UHGV virus genome: UHGV-1946849
From: a virus
DNA: 11,494 bases
Direction: 5' to 3' (one strand)
Under the pieces are notes generated by a model, which saw only the letters and a program-made list of their open reading frames with translations, did no database searches and was not told the origin of the DNA. Positions 82-11,494 of this stretch are shown one piece after another. Positions within the stretch are counted from its first letter, which is position 1; every line of letters begins with the position of its first letter. The translations under genes were made by a program, and so were the position numbers.

Positions 82-213
82 AAGATTTTATTCTTACTGT
101 TTCATTTTCTGTAAATCATATATCCTCAGTATTTGACATTCATCACTCTAGCGGGAACAATACGACACAATAAGACACCTGATGACTCTTTAAGAAACGA
201 AAGGGGGGCAATA

Positions 214-402
214 GTGTTAAGCACTGATCGGTTTATACGTGAAAAAGAATGCGAAAAACTAACCGGCCTTAGCCGTACGTGTCGCTACCGCCTGGAAAAG
301 GCCGGACAATTCCCATCACGTCGTAAACTTGGCGGTCGTTCCGTTGGCTGGTCTTTATCCGAGGTTCTGGCCTGGAAGGATAGCTGCAAGGCAGTTCATT
401 AA
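214..402 (+). CDS. alpA: AlpA-family winged-helix transcriptional regulator / excisionase-like protein (62 aa from GTG 214; the track ORF extends to TTG 133)
   Basis: Translation RFIREKECEKLTGLSRTCRYRLEKAGQFPSRRKLGGRSVGWSLSEVLAW aligns with E. coli CP4-57 AlpA as recalled. GTG at 214 follows the Shine-Dalgarno AAGGGGGG (201..208); the upstream TTG at 133 lies inside a TTGACA hexamer. Confidence 0.8.
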   Translation: MLSTDRFIREKECEKLTGLSRTCRYRLEKAGQFPSRRKLGGRSVGWSLSEVLAWKDSCKAVH

Positions 403-2735: not shown

Positions 2736-3035
2736 ATGAAACTTAAATATTCTGGCTTAACTGCCAGTGGCAACACTCACCCTAAATTTACGCGCGGCGA
2801 TATTTACCGCGACCAGTACGGCGGCACGGTAATGATTAAGGGCGTGGAAGAACGGCGCGTAACCTACCGCCGTGAAGGTTACGAATATGATTGCGTGATG
2901 CCTGTTTATCAGTTCCGGCGTGATTTTTCTCTGGTACAGACCGCGCCGCATAACGTGTCCACCAGCAACGCCAGGGCACGGGCAAACATCCAGAAGCTGA
3001 AAACCATGATTAACGGATTCAGGGGTAAAAAATGA
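2736..3035 (+). CDS. Hypothetical protein (99 aa) immediately upstream of and coupled to the primase gene
   Basis: GGAGA ribosome-binding site; stop overlaps the primase ATG (ATGA). Confidence 0.55.
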   Translation: MKLKYSGLTASGNTHPKFTRGDIYRDQYGGTVMIKGVEERRVTYRREGYEYDCVMPVYQFRRDFSLVQTAPHNVSTSNARARANIQKLKTMINGFRGKK

Positions 3036-4786
3036 AACTGGCACCGAACGTAAAACAGCAGTCACGCGGCATAAAACACAAAGAAACAGAAGTCATTATT
3101 TTTGCGGGTAGTGATGCCTGGTCACACGCAAAACAATGGCAGGGACATGACGCGCGTATGGCCGGAGATAATGAGCCTCCTGTGTGGCTTGGGGAGCAGC
3201 AGTTATCCGAACTGGATAAGCTGCAAATTGTGCCGGAAGGCAGAAAATCCGTGCGCATATTCAGGGCCGGATATCTTGCGCCAGTAATGATAAAGGCGAT
3301 TGGTCAGAAGCTGGCGGCGGCAGGCGTACAGGATGCAAATTTTTACCCTGATGGTATGCACGGTCAGAAGGTGGAGAACTGGCGCGAATATCTGGCCCGT
3401 GAGCGCCAGAATCTTTCTGATGGTCTGGTCATTGAGCTTCCGGTAAAGCAAAAGGCGCAACTTTCGCAGATGGCGGACAGTGAGCGCGCGCAGCTGCTTG
3501 CCGATCGCTTTGATGGCGTTTGCGTACATCCTGAAAGTGAAATCGTTCACGTATGGCGCGGCGGGGTATGGTGTCCGGTCAGCACAATGGAACTTAGCCG
3601 CGAAATGGTGGCGATCTATTCAGAGCACAGGGCCACTTTCAGCAAGCGCGTAATCAATAACGCCGTGGAAGCGTTAAAAGTTATTGCCGAACCAATGGGC
3701 GAGCCGTCCGGCGATTTGTTGCCGTTCGCCAATGGTGCGCTTGACCTGAAAACGGGGGAATTTTCCCCGCACACGCCGGAGAACTGGATCACCACGCACA
3801 ACGGCATTGAGTACACGCCACCAGCACCAGGGGAGAACATCCGCGATAACGCGCCAAACTTTCATAAATGGCTTGAGCACGCAGCCGGAAAAGACCCGCG
3901 CAAGATGATGCGTATATGTGCCGCGCTGTACATGATTATGGCGAACCGGTACGACTGGCAGATGTTTATTGAGGCCACCGGAGACGGCGGGAGCGGTAAA
4001 AGTACATTCACACACATAGCCAGCCTTCTGGCAGGGAAACAGAACACGGTAAGCGCTGAAATGACATCGCTTGATGATGCTGGTGGACGTGCGCAGGTTG
4101 TCGGGAGTCGTCTTATCGTCCTGGCTGACCAGCCGAAATATACAGGCGAAGGAACGGGCATCAAGAAAATCACGGGCGGTGACCCCGTGGAAATTAACCC
4201 GAAATACGAAAAGCGTTTCACGGCGGTAATCAGGGCGGTGGTGCTGGCGACCAACAATAACCCGATGATATTCACCGAACGGGCCGGAGGTGTGGCACGT
4301 CGTCGCGTGATTTTCCGTTTCGACAATATCGTCAGTGAGGCCGAAAAAGACAGGGAGCTACCGGAAAAGATCGCGGCTGAAATCCCTGTCATTATCCGCC
4401 GATTGCTGGCGAACTTTACCGACCCTGAGAAGGCACGGGCTTTACTACTGGAACAGCGTGACGGTGATGAAGCTCTGGCAATAAAGCAACAGACGGATCC
4501 GGTTATTGAGTTTTGCCAGTTCCTGAATTTTCTGGAGGAAGCACGCGGCCTGATGATGGGCGGCGGTGGCGATTCAGTGAAGTACACGACCAGAAACAGC
4601 CTTTACCGCGTCTATCTGGCGTTTATGGCGTACGCAGGCAGGAGCAAACCGCTAAACGTAAATGACTTTGGCAAGGCTATGAAGCCAGCCGCGAAAGTTT
4701 ACGGACATGAATATATTACGCGGAAAGTTAAGGGAGTAACGCAGACTAACGCAATAACAACAGACGAGTGCGACGCGTTTTTATAA
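3032..4786 (+). CDS. Replication protein: P4-family primase C-terminal domain / D5-N plus SF3 helicase (584 aa)
   Basis: Walker A GDGGSGKST, a D5-N-like segment LPFANGALDLKTGEF...NGIEY and an SF3 motif C VVLATNNNP; size and layout match Pri-Rep proteins of P4-like elements and PICIs. Confidence 0.88.
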   Translation: MKLAPNVKQQSRGIKHKETEVIIFAGSDAWSHAKQWQGHDARMAGDNEPPVWLGEQQLSELDKLQIVPEGRKSVRIFRAGYLAPVMIKAIGQKLAAAGVQDANFYPDGMHGQKVENWREYLARERQNLSDGLVIELPVKQKAQLSQMADSERAQLLADRFDGVCVHPESEIVHVWRGGVWCPVSTMELSREMVAIYSEHRATFSKRVINNAVEALKVIAEPMGEPSGDLLPFANGALDLKTGEFSPHTPENWITTHNGIEYTPPAPGENIRDNAPNFHKWLEHAAGKDPRKMMRICAALYMIMANRYDWQMFIEATGDGGSGKSTFTHIASLLAGKQNTVSAEMTSLDDAGGRAQVVGSRLIVLADQPKYTGEGTGIKKITGGDPVEINPKYEKRFTAVIRAVVLATNNNPMIFTERAGGVARRRVIFRFDNIVSEAEKDRELPEKIAAEIPVIIRRLLANFTDPEKARALLLEQRDGDEALAIKQQTDPVIEFCQFLNFLEEARGLMMGGGGDSVKYTTRNSLYRVYLAFMAYAGRSKPLNVNDFGKAMKPAAKVYGHEYITRKVKGVTQTNAITTDECDAFL

Positions 4787-4800
4787 TTTTTTGTAATTGC

Positions 4801-5026
4801 TGTCTACCCTGTCTACCTGAGTAAAGAAAAATACATTTAATTCAGTGCATTAAGTTAGGTAGATAGCCTTTTTTTACTGTCTACCCACTATCTACCCTCT
4901 CTACCTGATTTTACCTGAATCAGACAGGGAGGTAGACACGGGGTAGATAGTGGATAAAAGCACTCTACCCCGCTGAAAGCCGCGCCATTACTGGTATGAG
5001 GGCCACTAAGGTAGATAAGGTAGACA
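4801..5026. repeat. Iteron cluster, candidate replication origin / cis replication region
   Basis: At least 11 copies of (G/T)TCTACC(C) in both orientations (forward at 4802, 4811, 4879, 4890, 4900, 4964; reverse GGTAGA at 4858, 4931, 4942, 5010, 5019), non-coding, directly downstream of the primase gene. Confidence 0.6.
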
Positions 5027-5074: not shown

Positions 5075-5353
5075 ATGCACACTTCAGGGAAATTTAATAA
5101 ATCACTCAAAAAACGCAGAGACAGAACAGAACCGAAATATCGCGCGTTAGACATGACAGAGCACGCTTTAAAGGTGGCAATCAGAACGATAGACCGCCAC
5201 GCGGGGGAAGGATACGCGAAAGCACATCCCGAACTGATAAGCGCATTCATGACCACGACGGCGGCAAATTTTGCCACGCTGACAGAGCGGGAGATTGCCG
5301 AAGCGGAACAGGTAACAACCATCAACGTTAAAACCGGAGAGGTGGAATCATGA
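5075..5353 (+). CDS. Hypothetical protein (92 aa), coupled to the ssb-like gene
   Basis: GAGGGGG ribosome-binding site upstream; stop overlaps the next ATG (ATGA). Confidence 0.55.
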   Translation: MHTSGKFNKSLKKRRDRTEPKYRALDMTEHALKVAIRTIDRHAGEGYAKAHPELISAFMTTTAANFATLTEREIAEAEQVTTINVKTGEVES

Positions 5354-5772
5354 CAGCACAGATAGCAGCTTACGGGCGGCTGGTGGACGACCCGCAGGTA
5401 AAACAGACCAGCAAGGGCACACCGATGACGCTGGCGCGTATGGCGGTCCCCCTTCCGTGCAGCCAGGCAGATGACGGAACGGCGACGATGTGGTTATCCG
5501 TCCTGGCATTTGGCAGACAGGCCGAAGCACTGGAAAGGCACCGCAAGGGTGAACTCCTGAGCGTGGCGGGTAACATGCAGATCAGCCAGTGGACTGGGCA
5601 GAACGGAGAAACGCGGCAGGGCTGGCAGGTTATCGCAGACAGTGTAATCAGTGCGCGAACGGCGCGACTGGGCGGCAAAAAAGGTCAACAGGGCCAGGCT
5701 ACTGACGCGCTGAACAGGGCAAAACAACAGGCGGGGAATGATGATCCGTACGGGGATAACATACCGTTTTAA
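5350..5772 (+). CDS. ssb: Single-stranded DNA-binding protein homologue (140 aa)
   Basis: OB-fold segment WLSVLAFGRQAEALERHRKGELLSVAGNMQISQWTGQNGETRQGWQVIADSV aligns with E. coli SSB [52 protein letters not shown]; Gly/Gln-rich linker; C-terminal DDPYGDNIPF resembles the SSB acidic tip DDDIPF. Confidence 0.8.
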   Translation: MTAQIAAYGRLVDDPQVKQTSKGTPMTLARMAVPLPCSQADDGTATMWLSVLAFGRQAEALERHRKGELLSVAGNMQISQWTGQNGETRQGWQVIADSVISARTARLGGKKGQQGQATDALNRAKQQAGNDDPYGDNIPF

Positions 5773-5787
5773 GCGACGAGTGACAGA

Positions 5788-5811
5788 AGCCGGAGCAATC
5801 CGGCTTTTTTA
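5788..5811 (+). terminator. Rho-independent terminator after the ssb-like gene
   Basis: Stem GCCGGA (5789..5794), loop GCAA, stem TCCGGC (5799..5804), then TTTTTT. Confidence 0.7.
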
Positions 5812-5860
5812 CGGGTCCTCCTGGCGGGGTGGGCCTGAACACGGGGCGGGAAGCGCGGAA
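5811..5860 (+). other. Degenerate cos-like relic (cosQ-like with a disrupted cosN)
   Basis: ACGGGTCCTCCTGG...ACGGGGCGGGAAGCGCGG parallels the intact copy at 8253..8300 (ACGGGTCCTTTCCGG...ACGGGGCGGCGACCTCGCGG), and the preceding terminator hairpin is duplicated too. Confidence 0.5.
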
Positions 5861-5990
5861 AAAAGCGCATTTTTGTGATTTTATCGTCATCATCATCATG
5901 AGCGTAATTTATTGTTTTTAATTGTTTTGATGCAAAAAAGATGATGGTTGTGGTTAATTTTCGTTCGACATCTTTGCAGGCAGATAAAAA

Positions 5991-6027
5991 AGCCCGATAA
6001 GGTCAGAGGTGGCTTATCGGGCTTTTG
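5991..6027. terminator. Strong hairpin, bidirectional terminator-like
   Basis: Perfect 11-bp inverted repeat AGCCCGATAAG / CTTATCGGGCT with an 11-nt loop, flanked by an A-run upstream and TTTT downstream. Confidence 0.5.
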
Positions 6028-6103
6028 CATATGAGGCTTTTTGGTGCACTGACACACATGAGCGGGATCATCATTTCATAATTTGCAACACAACTCAATA
6101 TCA

Positions 6104-6152
6104 TTGCACAAAACGCAATCCTGATTATAATCAGAGCTGGATGAACATCCAG
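6104..6152 (+). promoter_or_regulatory. Candidate sigma-70 promoter of the capsid operon with a 16-bp palindrome at the predicted start
   Basis: -35 TTGCAC (6104..6109), 16-bp spacer, -10 TATAAT (6126..6131); perfect palindrome CTGGATGAACATCCAG at 6137..6152. Confidence 0.5.
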
Positions 6153-6187
6153 TTATGATTTTTTAAGTCGAAGAGGAATTTCTTACT

Positions 6188-6394
6188 ATGGCTGAAGAGA
6201 AAAAAGGCGGTGTTTCGGTGTACATAAGCCCCGAAATCGTGGAGGTGCTCAAGCAGCGCCACAAAAAAAACTATGAGGCTGGCGTGGCGGCTGGACTGGA
6301 TCCGCTGATGACGCCGGAGCCGTCGATAGGTTCACTTGTACGCTCTTATTTACTTGCGGCGCTTGGGATGCATAAAAATTATGGGGGTGAATAA
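6188..6394 (+). CDS. Hypothetical small protein (68 aa) translationally coupled to the capsid gene
   Basis: AAGAGGA ribosome-binding site; stop TAA overlaps the capsid ATG (TAATG). Confidence 0.6.
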   Translation: MAEEKKGGVSVYISPEIVEVLKQRHKKNYEAGVAAGLDPLMTPEPSIGSLVRSYLLAALGMHKNYGGE

Positions 6395-7449
6395 TGGCAG
6401 GCAAAGCAACGGCACTTAACACTAACCAGCTTTTCATGTACCTGAATCGCGGGGATATTGCGGATTTTAAATTCAGCCCTCTGTTTACTACGCTGTTTTT
6501 CCCGAACGTGGCGACATTCAGCACGCAAAACATCATGCTGGATACCCTGGACATTGAAGAAGTCACCATGTCGGCGTTTTGTTCGCCTATGGTGGGTAGC
6601 CAGGTTCAGCGCGATAAAGGGTACGAAACCAGCACGATTAAACCTGGCTACATGAAGCCAAAGCACGAAATCGATCCAACGAAAACCATCATGCGCATGG
6701 CTGGAGAAGATCCGGCACAGCTTAACGACCCTACCTATCGCCGTATGCGCCTGATTACTGGCAATATGCGCCGCCAGATAAACGCCATAAAAGCGCGCGT
6801 GGAATGGCTGGCGGTAAATGCGGTAACGACCGGAAAAAACATCATTGAGGGCGAAGGCATAGAGCGCTATGAAATCGACTGGAAGATACCGGAAAAAAAC
6901 ATCATAGAGCAGGCCGACGGGAAAAAATGGTCAGCGCAGGACAAAGAAACCCACGATCCAATCTATGATATCGAACTATACGCCGATCAGGCTGGTTGCC
7001 CCGCAAACGTCATGATTATGGGCGCTGAGGTATGGCGAACGTTACGCAGCTTTAAAAAATTCCGTGAGCTGTACGATCTTTCCCGTGGTTCAGAATCCGC
7101 CGCCGAACTGGCCTGTAAAAACCTGGGCGAAGTGGTGAGCTTTAAAGGCTATCTTGGTGATCTGGCCCTTATCGTCTATTCCGGCAAATACACTGACAGC
7201 GATGGTACCGAAAAATATTTCCTTGAGCCTGATTTGCTGGTCCTAGGTAACACCAACAATAAAGGGCTGGTGGCCTATGGTGCGATAATGGATCAGGAAG
7301 CGGTAAGAACGGGCGCAACACAAAACATGTTTTACCCGAAAAACTGGATTGAGGACGGCGATCCGGCGATTGAGTACGTGCAGACACACAGTGCACCGCA
7401 GCCGGTACCGGCAGATATTCGCAAATTTGTTACCGTCAAAATTGGTTAA
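6394..7449 (+). CDS. Major capsid protein, lambda gpE-like (351 aa)
   Basis: Colinear similarity to lambda E as recalled: FSPLF..LFF, KPGYMKPKHEIDP, DPTYRRMR, GSESAAELACKNLGEVVSFKGYLGDLALIVYSGKYTD, LVLGNT, YPKNW, GDPA. Confidence 0.9.
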   Translation: MAGKATALNTNQLFMYLNRGDIADFKFSPLFTTLFFPNVATFSTQNIMLDTLDIEEVTMSAFCSPMVGSQVQRDKGYETSTIKPGYMKPKHEIDPTKTIMRMAGEDPAQLNDPTYRRMRLITGNMRRQINAIKARVEWLAVNAVTTGKNIIEGEGIERYEIDWKIPEKNIIEQADGKKWSAQDKETHDPIYDIELYADQAGCPANVMIMGAEVWRTLRSFKKFRELYDLSRGSESAAELACKNLGEVVSFKGYLGDLALIVYSGKYTDSDGTEKYFLEPDLLVLGNTNNKGLVAYGAIMDQEAVRTGATQNMFYPKNWIEDGDPAIEYVQTHSAPQPVPADIRKFVTVKIG

Positions 7450-7461
7450 CGGGGGGATTCT

Positions 7462-7797
7462 ATGGACACTCCATACATTGAGTTATTTGCAGGCAGTCAG
7501 CGGGTCGCCACGACGCTGGTACATTTTGCCGCTGATGCTGGCGTTATTCAGGAATTTACCCCGCTGATGCTGGCAGACAATGGCGAGTTTAAGCCGTGGG
7601 ATGGTCAGGAATCTGGCAAGGCTGTTTATCTGACCTCGTACCCTGTGGACACGTCAAAGCAGAAATCAGCACAGTGTTACAAGACGGGGATTTTCAATAT
7701 TGCCGCCGTTAACTGGCCTGAGAGCGTCGACACCGATGCGAAAAAATGCGCCGCCTTTGCGGGTTCCGGCGTATCCGTTCAGCCGCTGGCCCGATAA
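7462..7797 (+). CDS. Head decoration protein, lambda gpD-like (111 aa)
   Basis: FTPLMLAD, WDG, YKTGIFN, WPES and KKCAAFAGSG match the lambda D motifs TPLMLDT, WDG, YKSGTFR, WPEA and KKRTAFAGT. Confidence 0.82.
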   Translation: MDTPYIELFAGSQRVATTLVHFAADAGVIQEFTPLMLADNGEFKPWDGQESGKAVYLTSYPVDTSKQKSAQCYKTGIFNIAAVNWPESVDTDAKKCAAFAGSGVSVQPLAR

Positions 7798-7809: not shown

Positions 7810-8223
7810 ATGGCAACGAATGAAAGCGTCATGACGCTACCGCTGGCGAGTAAATTTAAAGCCGAAGCGCGGGCAATGGCTGACAGAGGTTTATCAACCT
7901 ACGAGGCCGTATATCAACTCAACAAACTGGAAGAGCAGGACAAGCCGCGCGCTGATGCGATTATGGCGCTTCATGAACATAACGACTATCAGCCGCTGTT
8001 ACGTGCAATGGCAAACGTGCCATGTATTAGCGTCGATAATGCTCGTGAAATCCTGAACATGACCATAGAGCAGGAGCGCCCAAAGGTTGCGCCGGAGCTT
8101 ACCGCAGCCTTTGAAAACTTTATGGACATGCACAGCCCGAAAGCCGTATCACCCGGCATGGCATACGACGGCAGAAACCAGGGCGATGAAGGCGACGTCG
8201 ATCGCATACTGAAAACCATCTGA
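7810..8223 (+). CDS. Hypothetical protein (137 aa), last gene of the capsid operon
   Basis: GGGGGAA ribosome-binding site; followed by the terminator at 8229..8252. Confidence 0.6.
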   Translation: MATNESVMTLPLASKFKAEARAMADRGLSTYEAVYQLNKLEEQDKPRADAIMALHEHNDYQPLLRAMANVPCISVDNAREILNMTIEQERPKVAPELTAAFENFMDMHSPKAVSPGMAYDGRNQGDEGDVDRILKTI

Positions 8224-8252: not shown

Positions 8253-8310
8253 ACGGGTCCTTTCCGGCATATGGACCCGTTACGGGGCGGCGACCTCGCG
8301 GGTTTTCGCT
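8253..8310 (+). other. Lambda-type cos site (cosQ and cosN with the 12-nt cohesive end GGGCGGCGACCT at 8285..8296) with a truncated cosB
   Basis: ACGGGTCCTTTCCGG...GTTACGGGGCGGCGACCTCGCGGGTTTTCGCTATTTATGA matches the lambda cos junction as recalled; it then diverges to CGTTTTTCCGTG, and the Nu1-like gene starts only about 90 bp downstream. Confidence 0.85.
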
Positions 8311-8385: not shown

Positions 8386-8820
8386 ATGATTGATAAAGCT
8401 TGTTTTGTAAGTCAGCAGGAAATAGCTGAACATTTCAAGGTTAACAGAACCACTATTCGCGCATGGACCAAACAGGGGATGCCGTATCTTAATGCGGATC
8501 GCGGAAAGTCTGGCGGTTATCACATCGGGCATACATTGCTTTGGTCTTCAGGTAAAAGCCGTCTTGAGACCATCAGATATCACGTAGAAACCAGTGCGCT
8601 GGAAAAAATTATGTTTGCCAGGCTGCTTTCATCTGAGCGTGACGAGTACTCCAGTGAAGAAACAGAACATCGATTTGATGAAGGTTTGCAGATTTACGGC
8701 TATTCACCGGAAGATGTGAGCAAGGCACGAAATAAAATGGCTGGCTTTCTGGCTGGGTGGCGTCATGCCATAAGCGTTCGCCGTGCCAGCATGGAGCAAT
8801 CAGCCGATACAGAACAGTAA
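8386..8820 (+). CDS. Small terminase (lambda Nu1)-like protein, candidate Rpp-type packaging-redirection factor (144 aa)
   Basis: N-terminus VSQQEIAEHFKVNRTTIRAWTKQGMPYLNADRGKSGGYHIGHTLLWSSGKS aligns with lambda Nu1 VNKKQLADIFGASIRTIQNWQEQGMPVLRGGGKGNEVLYDSAAVIKWYAER; no large terminase gene follows. Confidence 0.78.
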   Translation: MIDKACFVSQQEIAEHFKVNRTTIRAWTKQGMPYLNADRGKSGGYHIGHTLLWSSGKSRLETIRYHVETSALEKIMFARLLSSERDEYSSEETEHRFDEGLQIYGYSPEDVSKARNKMAGFLAGWRHAISVRRASMEQSADTEQ

Positions 8821-10031: not shown

Positions 10032-11261
10032 GTGAGCAGAGCAATGAACAAACTGAGCGATACCTTGCTAAGGAAACTTCATGGTAAGCCAGCGGAGAAA
10101 AACACGTTTTATAGTGATGGCGGAAACCTGAGCGTGAAATATTTAACATCAGGGAAATTGACCTGGTATTTCACATACAGGGCCGGAACGGGAAGGGAGA
10201 CACGACCCGAACGCATTAAGCTGGGAAGTTATCCTGATCTGAGCCTGAAAGCAGCCAGGGAAAAAGCCGCACAGTGTCGCACATGGCTGGCTGAGGGGAA
10301 AAATCCACGTCATGAGATGAATTACACCGTACAGGAAGCGTTAAAGCCCGTAACGGTTGGCGATGCGCTCACCTACTGGCTTGAGTATTACGTAAAGGAA
10401 AACCGCGTGGATTATATCGCCCTGAAAAGGCGACTTAATAATCACGTAATACAGCAGATTGGTGCTATGCCGCTGGATAAATGCGAGCTACGGCACTGGC
10501 TGGCCTGTTTTGACCAGGTGGTAAAGCGAACGCCTGTTACTGCCGGATTCGTGCTACAGGCGTGCAAACAGGCGCTTAAGTTCTGCCGTAGGCGGCGCTA
10601 TGCAATCAGCAACGTTCTGGACGATCTGAACGTTGCGGACGTTGGGAAAAAACCGGATATAAGCGAACGTGTCTTAAGTAACAAAGAACTTGGCGAATTA
10701 TTGCAGGCACTGGACAAAAAAATATTCTCCCCTTACTACGTCGCGTTAATCCGCCTCCTGATTGTCTTCGGAGCCAGAACGGTAGAACTGAGGTTATCGG
10801 AGATCGGGGAGTGGGATTTTACGGAAATGCTATGGACCGTTCCGAAGGAGCACAGCAAAACGAAGGTCGCAATATTCCGGCCCATACCGGAAGCGATCCT
10901 GCCGTTCGTCACGCAGCTGGTGGAGCAGAACAGGCACACGGGCTTATTGCTGGGGGAAGTGAAACAGGAGGCCAGCGTATCGCAGTATGGAAGATTAGCG
11001 CACAGGAGGCTTAATCACCCTCACTGGTCACTGCATGACATCCGGCGCACCTTTACAACCATGCTGAACGATTTAGGCGTTGATCCGCATGTCGTGGAGC
11101 AGCTTACAGGCCACCAGATGCCAGGAATGCAGCGAGTTTATAATCATTCCCGTTATCTGGATGCGAAACGCAATGCGCTGGATATGTGGACGGAGCGGTT
11201 AGGGATACTGGCGGGAACACATGAAAACGTAACCACGCTACCCGTAGCCAGAAGAAAATAA
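10032..11261 (+). CDS. int: Tyrosine recombinase, P4-type integrase with N-terminal arm-binding domain (409 aa)
   Basis: N-terminal arm-binding-domain pattern (DGGNLSVKYLTSGKLTWYFTYR...IKLGSYPDLSLKAAREKA); catalytic region with R..HDIRRT..LTGH..Y residues; GTG start after GAGGGGG. Confidence 0.93.
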   Translation: MSRAMNKLSDTLLRKLHGKPAEKNTFYSDGGNLSVKYLTSGKLTWYFTYRAGTGRETRPERIKLGSYPDLSLKAAREKAAQCRTWLAEGKNPRHEMNYTVQEALKPVTVGDALTYWLEYYVKENRVDYIALKRRLNNHVIQQIGAMPLDKCELRHWLACFDQVVKRTPVTAGFVLQACKQALKFCRRRRYAISNVLDDLNVADVGKKPDISERVLSNKELGELLQALDKKIFSPYYVALIRLLIVFGARTVELRLSEIGEWDFTEMLWTVPKEHSKTKVAIFRPIPEAILPFVTQLVEQNRHTGLLLGEVKQEASVSQYGRLAHRRLNHPHWSLHDIRRTFTTMLNDLGVDPHVVEQLTGHQMPGMQRVYNHSRYLDAKRNALDMWTERLGILAGTHENVTTLPVARRK

Positions 11262-11278: not shown

Positions 11279-11355
11279 CAGTATGCGCATACTGGATATG
11301 CGAACAGATACAACGTGCAACAATGAGCAACAATGTGGAACAACTACGAACAAGA
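11279..11355. promoter_or_regulatory. Candidate integrase arm-type / accessory sites next to the right repeat
   Basis: Perfect 16-bp palindrome CAGTATGCGCATACTG (11279..11294) and (C/G)AACAA repeats at about 10-bp phasing (11302..11355, including GCAACAATG twice). Confidence 0.4.
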
Positions 11356-11417
11356 GGCGAAAAAGCGTACGGATTTATAAGTAGCTGATTTTTAATGTGT
11401 TACTGGTTTTTTGTACA

Positions 11418-11494
11418 CTAGCGAATCACTCTTTAAAGAGCGAGAAAAAAGGCATGGAACAATATTTTATGCCTTTGTATTAACATGAATTTAA
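11418..11494. repeat. Right attachment-site direct repeat (attR candidate)
   Basis: Identical to 5..81; the window ends at the repeat end, so the identity could extend further. Confidence 0.8.

Follow-up and report, generated by a model that had tools for sequence, protein, structure and literature searches.

The promoter of the capsid operon in an Escherichia coli phage-inducible chromosomal island (PICI) carries, just after its -10 hexamer, a 16-mer CTGGATGAACATCCAG that is probably an operator through which the host LexA protein controls the operon. The island makes up the whole of the 11,494-nt stretch of DNA analysed here (the window). The box is present, scores as a real SOS box, is conserved in a LexA-like manner among relatives, and recurs independently. 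We infer that LexA binds it, that transcription starts near position 6138 and that expression of the operon depends on the SOS response. Since SOS also induces lambdoid helpers, capsid expression could be coupled to helper induction. The original observation is confirmed in part. Its interpretation left a choice between an SOS box and the binding site of some other dimeric regulator; computationally the SOS box is the favoured option, supported by its score, its conservation, the direction of its substitutions and a canonical box in a Lelliottia element.

The mechanism that we propose would work as follows. In an undamaged cell, a LexA dimer lying over about +1 to +16 would exclude RNA polymerase from an otherwise competent TTGCAC-16-TATAAT promoter. 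Upon DNA damage RecA would be activated, LexA would cleave itself, and the capsid module would be derepressed, at about the time when SOS-inducible lambdoid helper prophages are induced.

The island and its capsid genes

The window is an E. coli PICI of the EcCICFT073 family. It has an int-alpA-primase/ori module, lambda-type cosN, an Rpp-like small-terminase mimic and homologues of gpE and gpD (c1499/c1500), and its gene set and cosN match the published description of EcCICFT073 (PMC6092414). The last 77 nt of the window (11418-11494) duplicate nt 5-81, which shows that what we have is a wrapped, circularly permuted copy of an ~11.4-kb island. An identical copy of the island occupies tqsA of E. 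coli O18:H1 CFSAN067215 (RefSeq context), and the promoter region of strain Nissle 1917 is 91.8% identical to that of the window over the surrounding 621 bp. Features are collected in Table 1.

Table 1. Genes and regulatory features of the window, in order of position.
Feature	Positions	Strand	Basis or remark
AlpA	133-402		Pfam
D5/primase	3032-4786		Pfam
SSB	5350-5772		Pfam
Strong bidirectional terminator-like inverted repeat with A-run and T-run, AAAAAAGCCCGATAAG...CTTATCGGGCTTTT	5981-6033	.	21-nt arms, 86% complementary
TTGCAA element, 21 nt before the -35 TTGCAC	6083-6088	+	belongs to a conserved set of TTGCA motifs; invariant in 53 haplotypes
Inverted repeat ATTGCA-N5-CGCAAT over the -35	6103-6119	.	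right arm is TGCAAT in most relatives
-35 hexamer TTGCAC	6104-6109	+	read directly; 3/6 to consensus TTGACA (TTG only)
14-bp perfect palindrome CTGATTATAATCAG, centred on the -10	6121-6134	.	read directly
-10 hexamer TATAAT, perfect	6126-6131	+	read directly; invariant in all but one haplotype
Extended inverted repeat	6129-6160	+	inverted-repeat scan; arms 6129-6143 and 6146-6160
Predicted LexA operator (SOS box), 20-mer AGCTGGATGAACATCCAGTT	6135-6154	.	weight matrix; core CTG-N10-CAG at 6137-6152
T6 run after the hairpin, in the conserved 5' leader	6159-6164	+	terminator-like scan match
Ribosome-binding site of the first gene, AAGAGGAA	6171-6178	+	read directly
First operon gene, 68 aa	6188-6394	+	ORF list, PHROG match (phrog_3255), homologues
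Major capsid protein, lambda gpE family	6394-7449	+	PF03864, E = 4.8e-52; RefSeq annotation as major capsid protein
Head decoration protein, lambda gpD family	7462-7797	+	PF02924, E = 2.9e-17
137-aa protein, like the C-terminal (scaffold) part of head maturation proteases	7810-8223	+	phrog_1999
lambda-type cosN, two copies, GGGCGGCGACCT	8285 and 9024
Rpp-like HTH protein	8386-8820
P4-type integrase	10032-11261		Pfam

The small first gene of the operon gave a two-helix model (pLDDT 70), which had no PDB fold match with E < 5, and its product had no Pfam match. The 137-aa reading frame at the other end of the operon aligns to positions 495-567 of the 583 positions of phrog_53 (E = 2.3e-9) and resembles a Nu3-like scaffold domain without the protease; this scaffold likeness indicates that the genes 3' of the LexA-like site form a true capsid module. 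The ribosome-binding site retains AGTCAAAGAGGAA in every family that has the small reading frame.

Three regions elsewhere in the window deserve mention. The segment 5787-5975, directly 3' of ssb, bears no annotation and opens with a hairpin (5787-5806) followed by a T-run; a query of 5780-6400 matched 1,653 E. coli records, and in many of them, far more than the 351 with the capsid promoter, the segment recurs with 75-88% identity. A long imperfect inverted repeat of CTACC-type short repeats (4873-4954) adjoins the 3' end of the primase gene, in the place expected for a PICI replication origin; it came to light through a spurious mir-135 match. Finally, the minus strand at 1209-1281, inside an Icd-like region downstream of alpA, matches the SymR antitoxin RNA family below threshold (E = 0.0035; 33 bits, where the gathering score is 61).

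The capsid promoter and its LexA-like box

The promoter had been described as a near-consensus sigma-70 promoter; its position and its perfect -10 hexamer stand, and its -35 hexamer falls short of that description (Table 1). The two hexamers are separated by the 16-nt spacer AAAACGCAATCCTGAT. A consensus promoter scan did not list TTGCAC-16-TATAAT, because only half of the -35 positions match. Despite this, the promoter appears credible from its conservation across families and from the terminator upstream of it. Four diverged promoter families (E. coli A, E. coli B, Salmonella and Edwardsiella) keep TTGC in the -35, a spacing of 16 nt and the -10, whose equivalent is TAAAAT in family B and Edwardsiella; the upstream TTGCAA element is also found in the Salmonella and family B promoters. 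The terminator-like repeat is kept in all related loci and ends the upstream alpA-pri-ssb operon; a new transcription unit must therefore begin in the gap before the capsid genes. We also considered an alternative promoter, TTCATA-18-TATCAT (6075-6104), which would transcribe the whole hairpin described below, and rejected it for the poor conservation of its -10-like hexamer, including the key second position.

The 16-mer begins 6 nt after the conserved TATAAT, and with the predicted start at about 6138 it would span about +1 to +16 of the transcript. CTG-N10-CAG lies where it was originally placed, has the spacing of a LexA site, and matches only once in the whole window. It had also been called a perfect palindrome; this does not hold, as its 7-nt arms CTGGATG and CATCCAG surround a non-symmetric AA, and the repeat is in fact longer, with 15-nt arms that pair at 13 of 15 positions in the window and at all 15 in most relatives. 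The T-run beyond these arms is also kept in families without the hairpin. The palindrome is no cos site; the cosN copies lie at 8285 and 9024 instead.

For scoring we built a symmetrised weight matrix from 18 SOS boxes located upstream of UV-induced genes (Table 4 of PMC3009722); this is our own matrix and not the published Lewis index. With it the 20-mer scores 18.9 bits with a heterology index (HI) of 8.4, and is the best site in the window. The 18 real boxes span leave-one-out HI values from 2.0 to 17.0 (ruvA 8.6, cho 8.0, lexA 8.1, recA 7.1), which places the window site in the middle of the validated range. From the exact score distribution, 18.9 bits has P = 2.5e-7 per position, so that 0.003 chance sites this good are expected per window and about one per 4.6 Mb, the size of an E. 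coli genome. Given any 7+2+7 inverted repeat, the probability of a LexA score this high is P = 1.3e-4. The score remains 18.1 bits when ruvA and cho are dropped from the training set.

The comparison with known boxes also removes the ground on which the site had been thought weak, namely that its inner bases are G/C. The boxes of ruvA (CTGGATATCTATCCAG) and cho (CTGGATAGATAACCAG) have the same CTGG/CCAG arms, and the recA box (CTGTATGAGCATACAG), with its G/C-containing centre (GAGC), resembles the window site there. The window site has 12 of 16 positions identical to ruvA and 13 of 16 to recA, sharing with them CTG-N10-CAG and AT at positions 5-6 and 11-12. Whereas the chromosomal boxes of E. 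coli control DNA repair genes, the predicted site in the window lies on a phage satellite, before capsid genes, and inside a 32-bp inverted repeat.

Conservation and alternative readings

We compared 84 copies of the promoter, from 80 IMG/VR loci, three RefSeq loci and the window, which make up 53 haplotypes. In the search for relatives, a first scan of genome contigs yielded none and a second only four family C loci. Among 5,426 complete E. coli genomes about 350 carry this type of promoter, and both Nissle 1917 and an O157:H7 strain have the box. At 83 of the 84 loci the box is kept at an HI of 6-10; the exception is L038, where a 1-nt insertion destroys the spacing. CTG and CAG, 10 bp apart in these 83 loci, are invariant in all 84, and the AT dinucleotides likewise never vary. 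Within the 16-mer the changes are confined to 6143 (G/A), 6149 (C/A) and the centre (AA replaced once by TT), leaving 12 of 16 positions invariant over the 53 haplotypes, while the most variable positions of the region, 6134-6136, lie immediately outside the core. The core substitutions G7A and C13A, along with C10A in Salmonella, each break a pair of the hairpin and keep or raise the LexA score, and none is compensatory; constraint on the core follows the protein-binding consensus and not base pairing.

More distant relatives extend this picture. The promoter is also kept in the Salmonella relatives (68-69% capsid identity), and the change in their box CTGGATGAAAATCCAG is pair-breaking and LexA-neutral. 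In a Lelliottia element (59% capsid identity) a canonical box, CACTGTTTTTTCATACAGTT, of 21.2 bits, stands 26 nt before the homologous small reading frame; this box (CTGTTTTTTCATACAG) shares only the LexA consensus with that of the window and has no capacity for a comparable hairpin. In E. coli family B the -35 palindrome, the -10, the outer arms and the leader are retained and the LexA-like core is missing. No LexA-like box was found in the Edwardsiella elements, in any of the family C elements examined, or in six further loci of the family C type, in which the capsid gene comes first. Its absence from family B, Edwardsiella and family C makes LexA control look like a lineage-specific trait, one that would have been acquired at least twice and would not be essential to the capsid module. 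As a separate matter, three loci (L108-L110) have capsid genes 86% identical to those of the window behind box-less family B promoters, which means that recombination has reshuffled promoter types with respect to capsid types.

A point against LexA is that the inverted repeat exceeds the 20-mer by 6 nt on each side, with some compensatory changes there, which a LexA site does not account for. One could suppose that the palindrome acts mainly as RNA, its likeness to a LexA site being incidental: either a hairpin and U-run would terminate or attenuate read-through from the alpA-pri-ssb operon, possibly bypassed by an AlpA/Q-type antiterminator, or a 5' stem-loop would stabilise the capsid mRNA. 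We consider this very unlikely, although several observations are in its favour. A scan flags 6135-6154 plus ATGATTTTTT as terminator-like; the extended hairpin has -13.4 kcal/mol in the window (z = -3.7), and in relatives with perfect arms a 101-nt segment containing it reaches -25.9 kcal/mol (z = -5.3). The outer arms show compensatory pairs (GGA/TCC, CAA/TTG and GAG/TTC), a weak signal confined to these arms, whose covariation score was reached by 7 of 500 shuffles, a lenient control for related sequences. Family B still has the T-run and the outer arms CATGAC/GTTATG, and AlpA-family proteins can antiterminate past a promoter-proximal terminator (PMC7969949). However, part of the left outer arm falls inside the -10 and the rest just after it, so that the promoter's own RNA lacks this arm; the long hairpin forms only in RNA starting upstream of the capsid promoter, and in such read-through RNA the base of the stem, beside the U-run, is A/U-rich. 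The promoter's own transcript would hold just the inner stem of 7-8 bp, with the U-run beginning 6 nt later, a geometry unlike that expected of a terminator. All changes inside the 16-mer are pair-breaking and uncompensated, a G-A mismatch at 6134/6155 is present in 23 of the 53 haplotypes (the window included), and the Lelliottia box stands at the equivalent place with no ability to form the hairpin. There is no significant fold in families B and Edwardsiella (z = 0.1 and 0.8), Rfam has no match in 5900-6200, and a random 7+2+7 repeat would seldom be this LexA-like. Constraint on the core thus appears to come from protein binding; the outer arms may in addition help to stop read-through from the early operon, or may reflect mere growth of the palindrome.

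If a protein is the more plausible ligand, it need not be LexA. Another dimeric regulator might recognise CTGGAT-N4-ATCCAG or the 32-bp palindrome as a whole, and could come from the island, from the helper phage (an S24-type repressor, for instance) or from the host. That the palindrome is longer than a LexA site fits such a regulator, and the two further palindromes of this promoter make dense use of operators by other proteins likely. We nevertheless regard it as quite unlikely: the conserved positions are all those of the LexA consensus and the variable ones all LexA-tolerated, and the Lelliottia and Salmonella boxes have only LexA features in common. The window offers no second copy of the motif for a dedicated regulator, and we found no candidate gene for a repressor; the model of the 68-aa first gene product gave no DNA-binding fold. 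Palindromes can also grow through template switching, and a quasi-palindrome of this origin, or one due to chance, would have no regulatory role. Such an explanation seems extremely improbable to us. The capsid and decoration genes of EcCICFT073 are dispensable for transfer and interference (PMC6092414), and selection on their control could accordingly be weak; against this, the core holds its invariant positions while 6134-6136 vary freely, the box is conserved into Salmonella at 68% capsid identity, and the chance expectation per window is far below one. Conservation, the direction of substitution and the Lelliottia box therefore favour LexA over an RNA hairpin or another protein.

Further inputs and parallels in other elements

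LexA would probably not be the only input to the capsid promoter, which is tiled by three palindromes: one over the -35, one over the -10 and the LexA-like box. The TTGCA inverted repeat over the -35 is kept in E. coli families A and B and in Salmonella, occurs in two copies in Edwardsiella, and is retained in all families with the small reading frame; it is probably the operator of some regulator. AlpA is unlikely to be its binder, as the palindrome is common to islands with three types of AlpA, and the AlpA-responsive alpA promoter of EcCICFT073 lacks it, having AAAACGGTG repeats instead. Nor could we support the first gene of the operon as a ribbon-helix-helix autoregulator, in view of its two-helix model and lack of a fold match. 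In the palindrome over the -10, positions 6121 and 6134 co-vary among haplotypes, C-G versus A-T (Fisher p = 0.016, with relatedness ignored).

We also looked for LexA-like sites beyond the capsid promoter. In 710 kb of fetched loci, the other matches of at least 15 bits all lie between int and alpA. One of them, a near-consensus box TACTGTATTTTAATCCAGTA of 25.2 bits, is found 49 nt upstream of alpA in the family B island L102 (8812-8831, minus-strand orientation; alpA ATG at 8762), whose capsid promoter has no box; its position suggests direct SOS control of the master activator alpA in family B. The window itself has a weaker LexA-like 20-mer, TACTGGATATGCGAACAGAT (11290-11309, 13 bits), between int and alpA. 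A second candidate, the conserved element TACTGGTTTTTTGTACACTA at 11401-11420, ~205 nt upstream of the window-type alpA, was rejected as a LexA site: all four variants have CAC or CAT as the right arm in place of CAG, and the motif is probably of another kind.

According to PMC6092414, induction of Gram-negative PICIs depends on AlpA and a helper signal, with no known repressor, and the alpA of EcCICFT073 is reported there to be switched on by the helper, SOS alone having no such effect. For the island, SOS can therefore be at most a part of the induction signal. LexA control of the capsid module would supply a second input, one that comes from the host, as would LexA acting on alpA in the sister family; it would also explain the silence of the capsid genes in a resident island. 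We predict that SOS-inducing antibiotics would switch on the capsid genes in strains carrying this promoter.

Our literature search found no description of the capsid-operon promoter, the box sequence or LexA control in Gram-negative PICIs; a LexA-controlled capsid operon is thus undescribed for these islands in the literature searched, and its mechanism is not of a new kind. LexA boxes at or just after the -10 of a mobile-element promoter are familiar from the colicin operons and from tum of coliphage 186, whose cargo consists of toxins or antirepressors, in contrast to the capsid, decoration and scaffold homologues of the window. The Gram-positive LexA motif, CGAAC-N4-GTTCG, is unlike that of E. 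coli. In Staphylococcus aureus, operon I of the SaPIs, a module for packaging and capsid remodelling, is LexA-controlled (Ubeda 2007, as cited in PMC6092414). There, as is proposed for the window, a satellite's morphogenesis or packaging module is placed under the host SOS repressor, apart from the helper-sensing master switch. The genes are unrelated and the SaPIs use the Stl repressor, whereas the island in the window relies on activation by AlpA, making this an analogy and not a homology; if LexA does act on the capsid operon, the likeness would represent convergent regulatory logic in phage satellites.

The arrangement of a promoter followed by a hairpin and a U-run also recalls the antitermination cassettes of AlpA and Q (alpB; lambda PR'-qut-tR'), and the master regulator of the island in the window belongs to the AlpA family. 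The alpB promoter of Pseudomonas aeruginosa has an AlpA-binding element, GGGACG-N5-GGTA, between its -35 and -10, plus a downstream terminator (PMC7969949). This element is absent from the window spacer, and the left arm of the window hairpin overlaps the -10, upstream of the predicted start; the window thus does not have the makings of an AlpA-dependent antitermination cassette of the P. aeruginosa type. A more elaborate proposal would combine these elements into a composite switch of three abutting palindromes. The LexA box would be an SOS operator in DNA and also the top of a 15-bp hairpin with U-run which, in RNA of the alpA operon, insulates the capsid module unless an AlpA-type antiterminator acts. 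Taken with the strong LexA box before alpA in the sister family, this would mean that Gram-negative PICIs have repeatedly connected various nodes of their cycle straight to host SOS and combine this input with a signal from the helper, in place of dependence on the helper alone. We think it unlikely that all of this holds.

Family C islands differ in layout: the capsid gene comes first and an AlpA-family gene follows the decoration gene. In four of them (L084 2335-2365, L086 2378-2407, L087 24-54 and L111 about 1425-1455) we observed three direct TTGC(A)/TTGTGC repeats, ~10-11 bp apart, 5' of the capsid gene; the first three of these islands have the spacing TTGC-N6-TTGC-N6-TTGC, which is of the lambda CII type.
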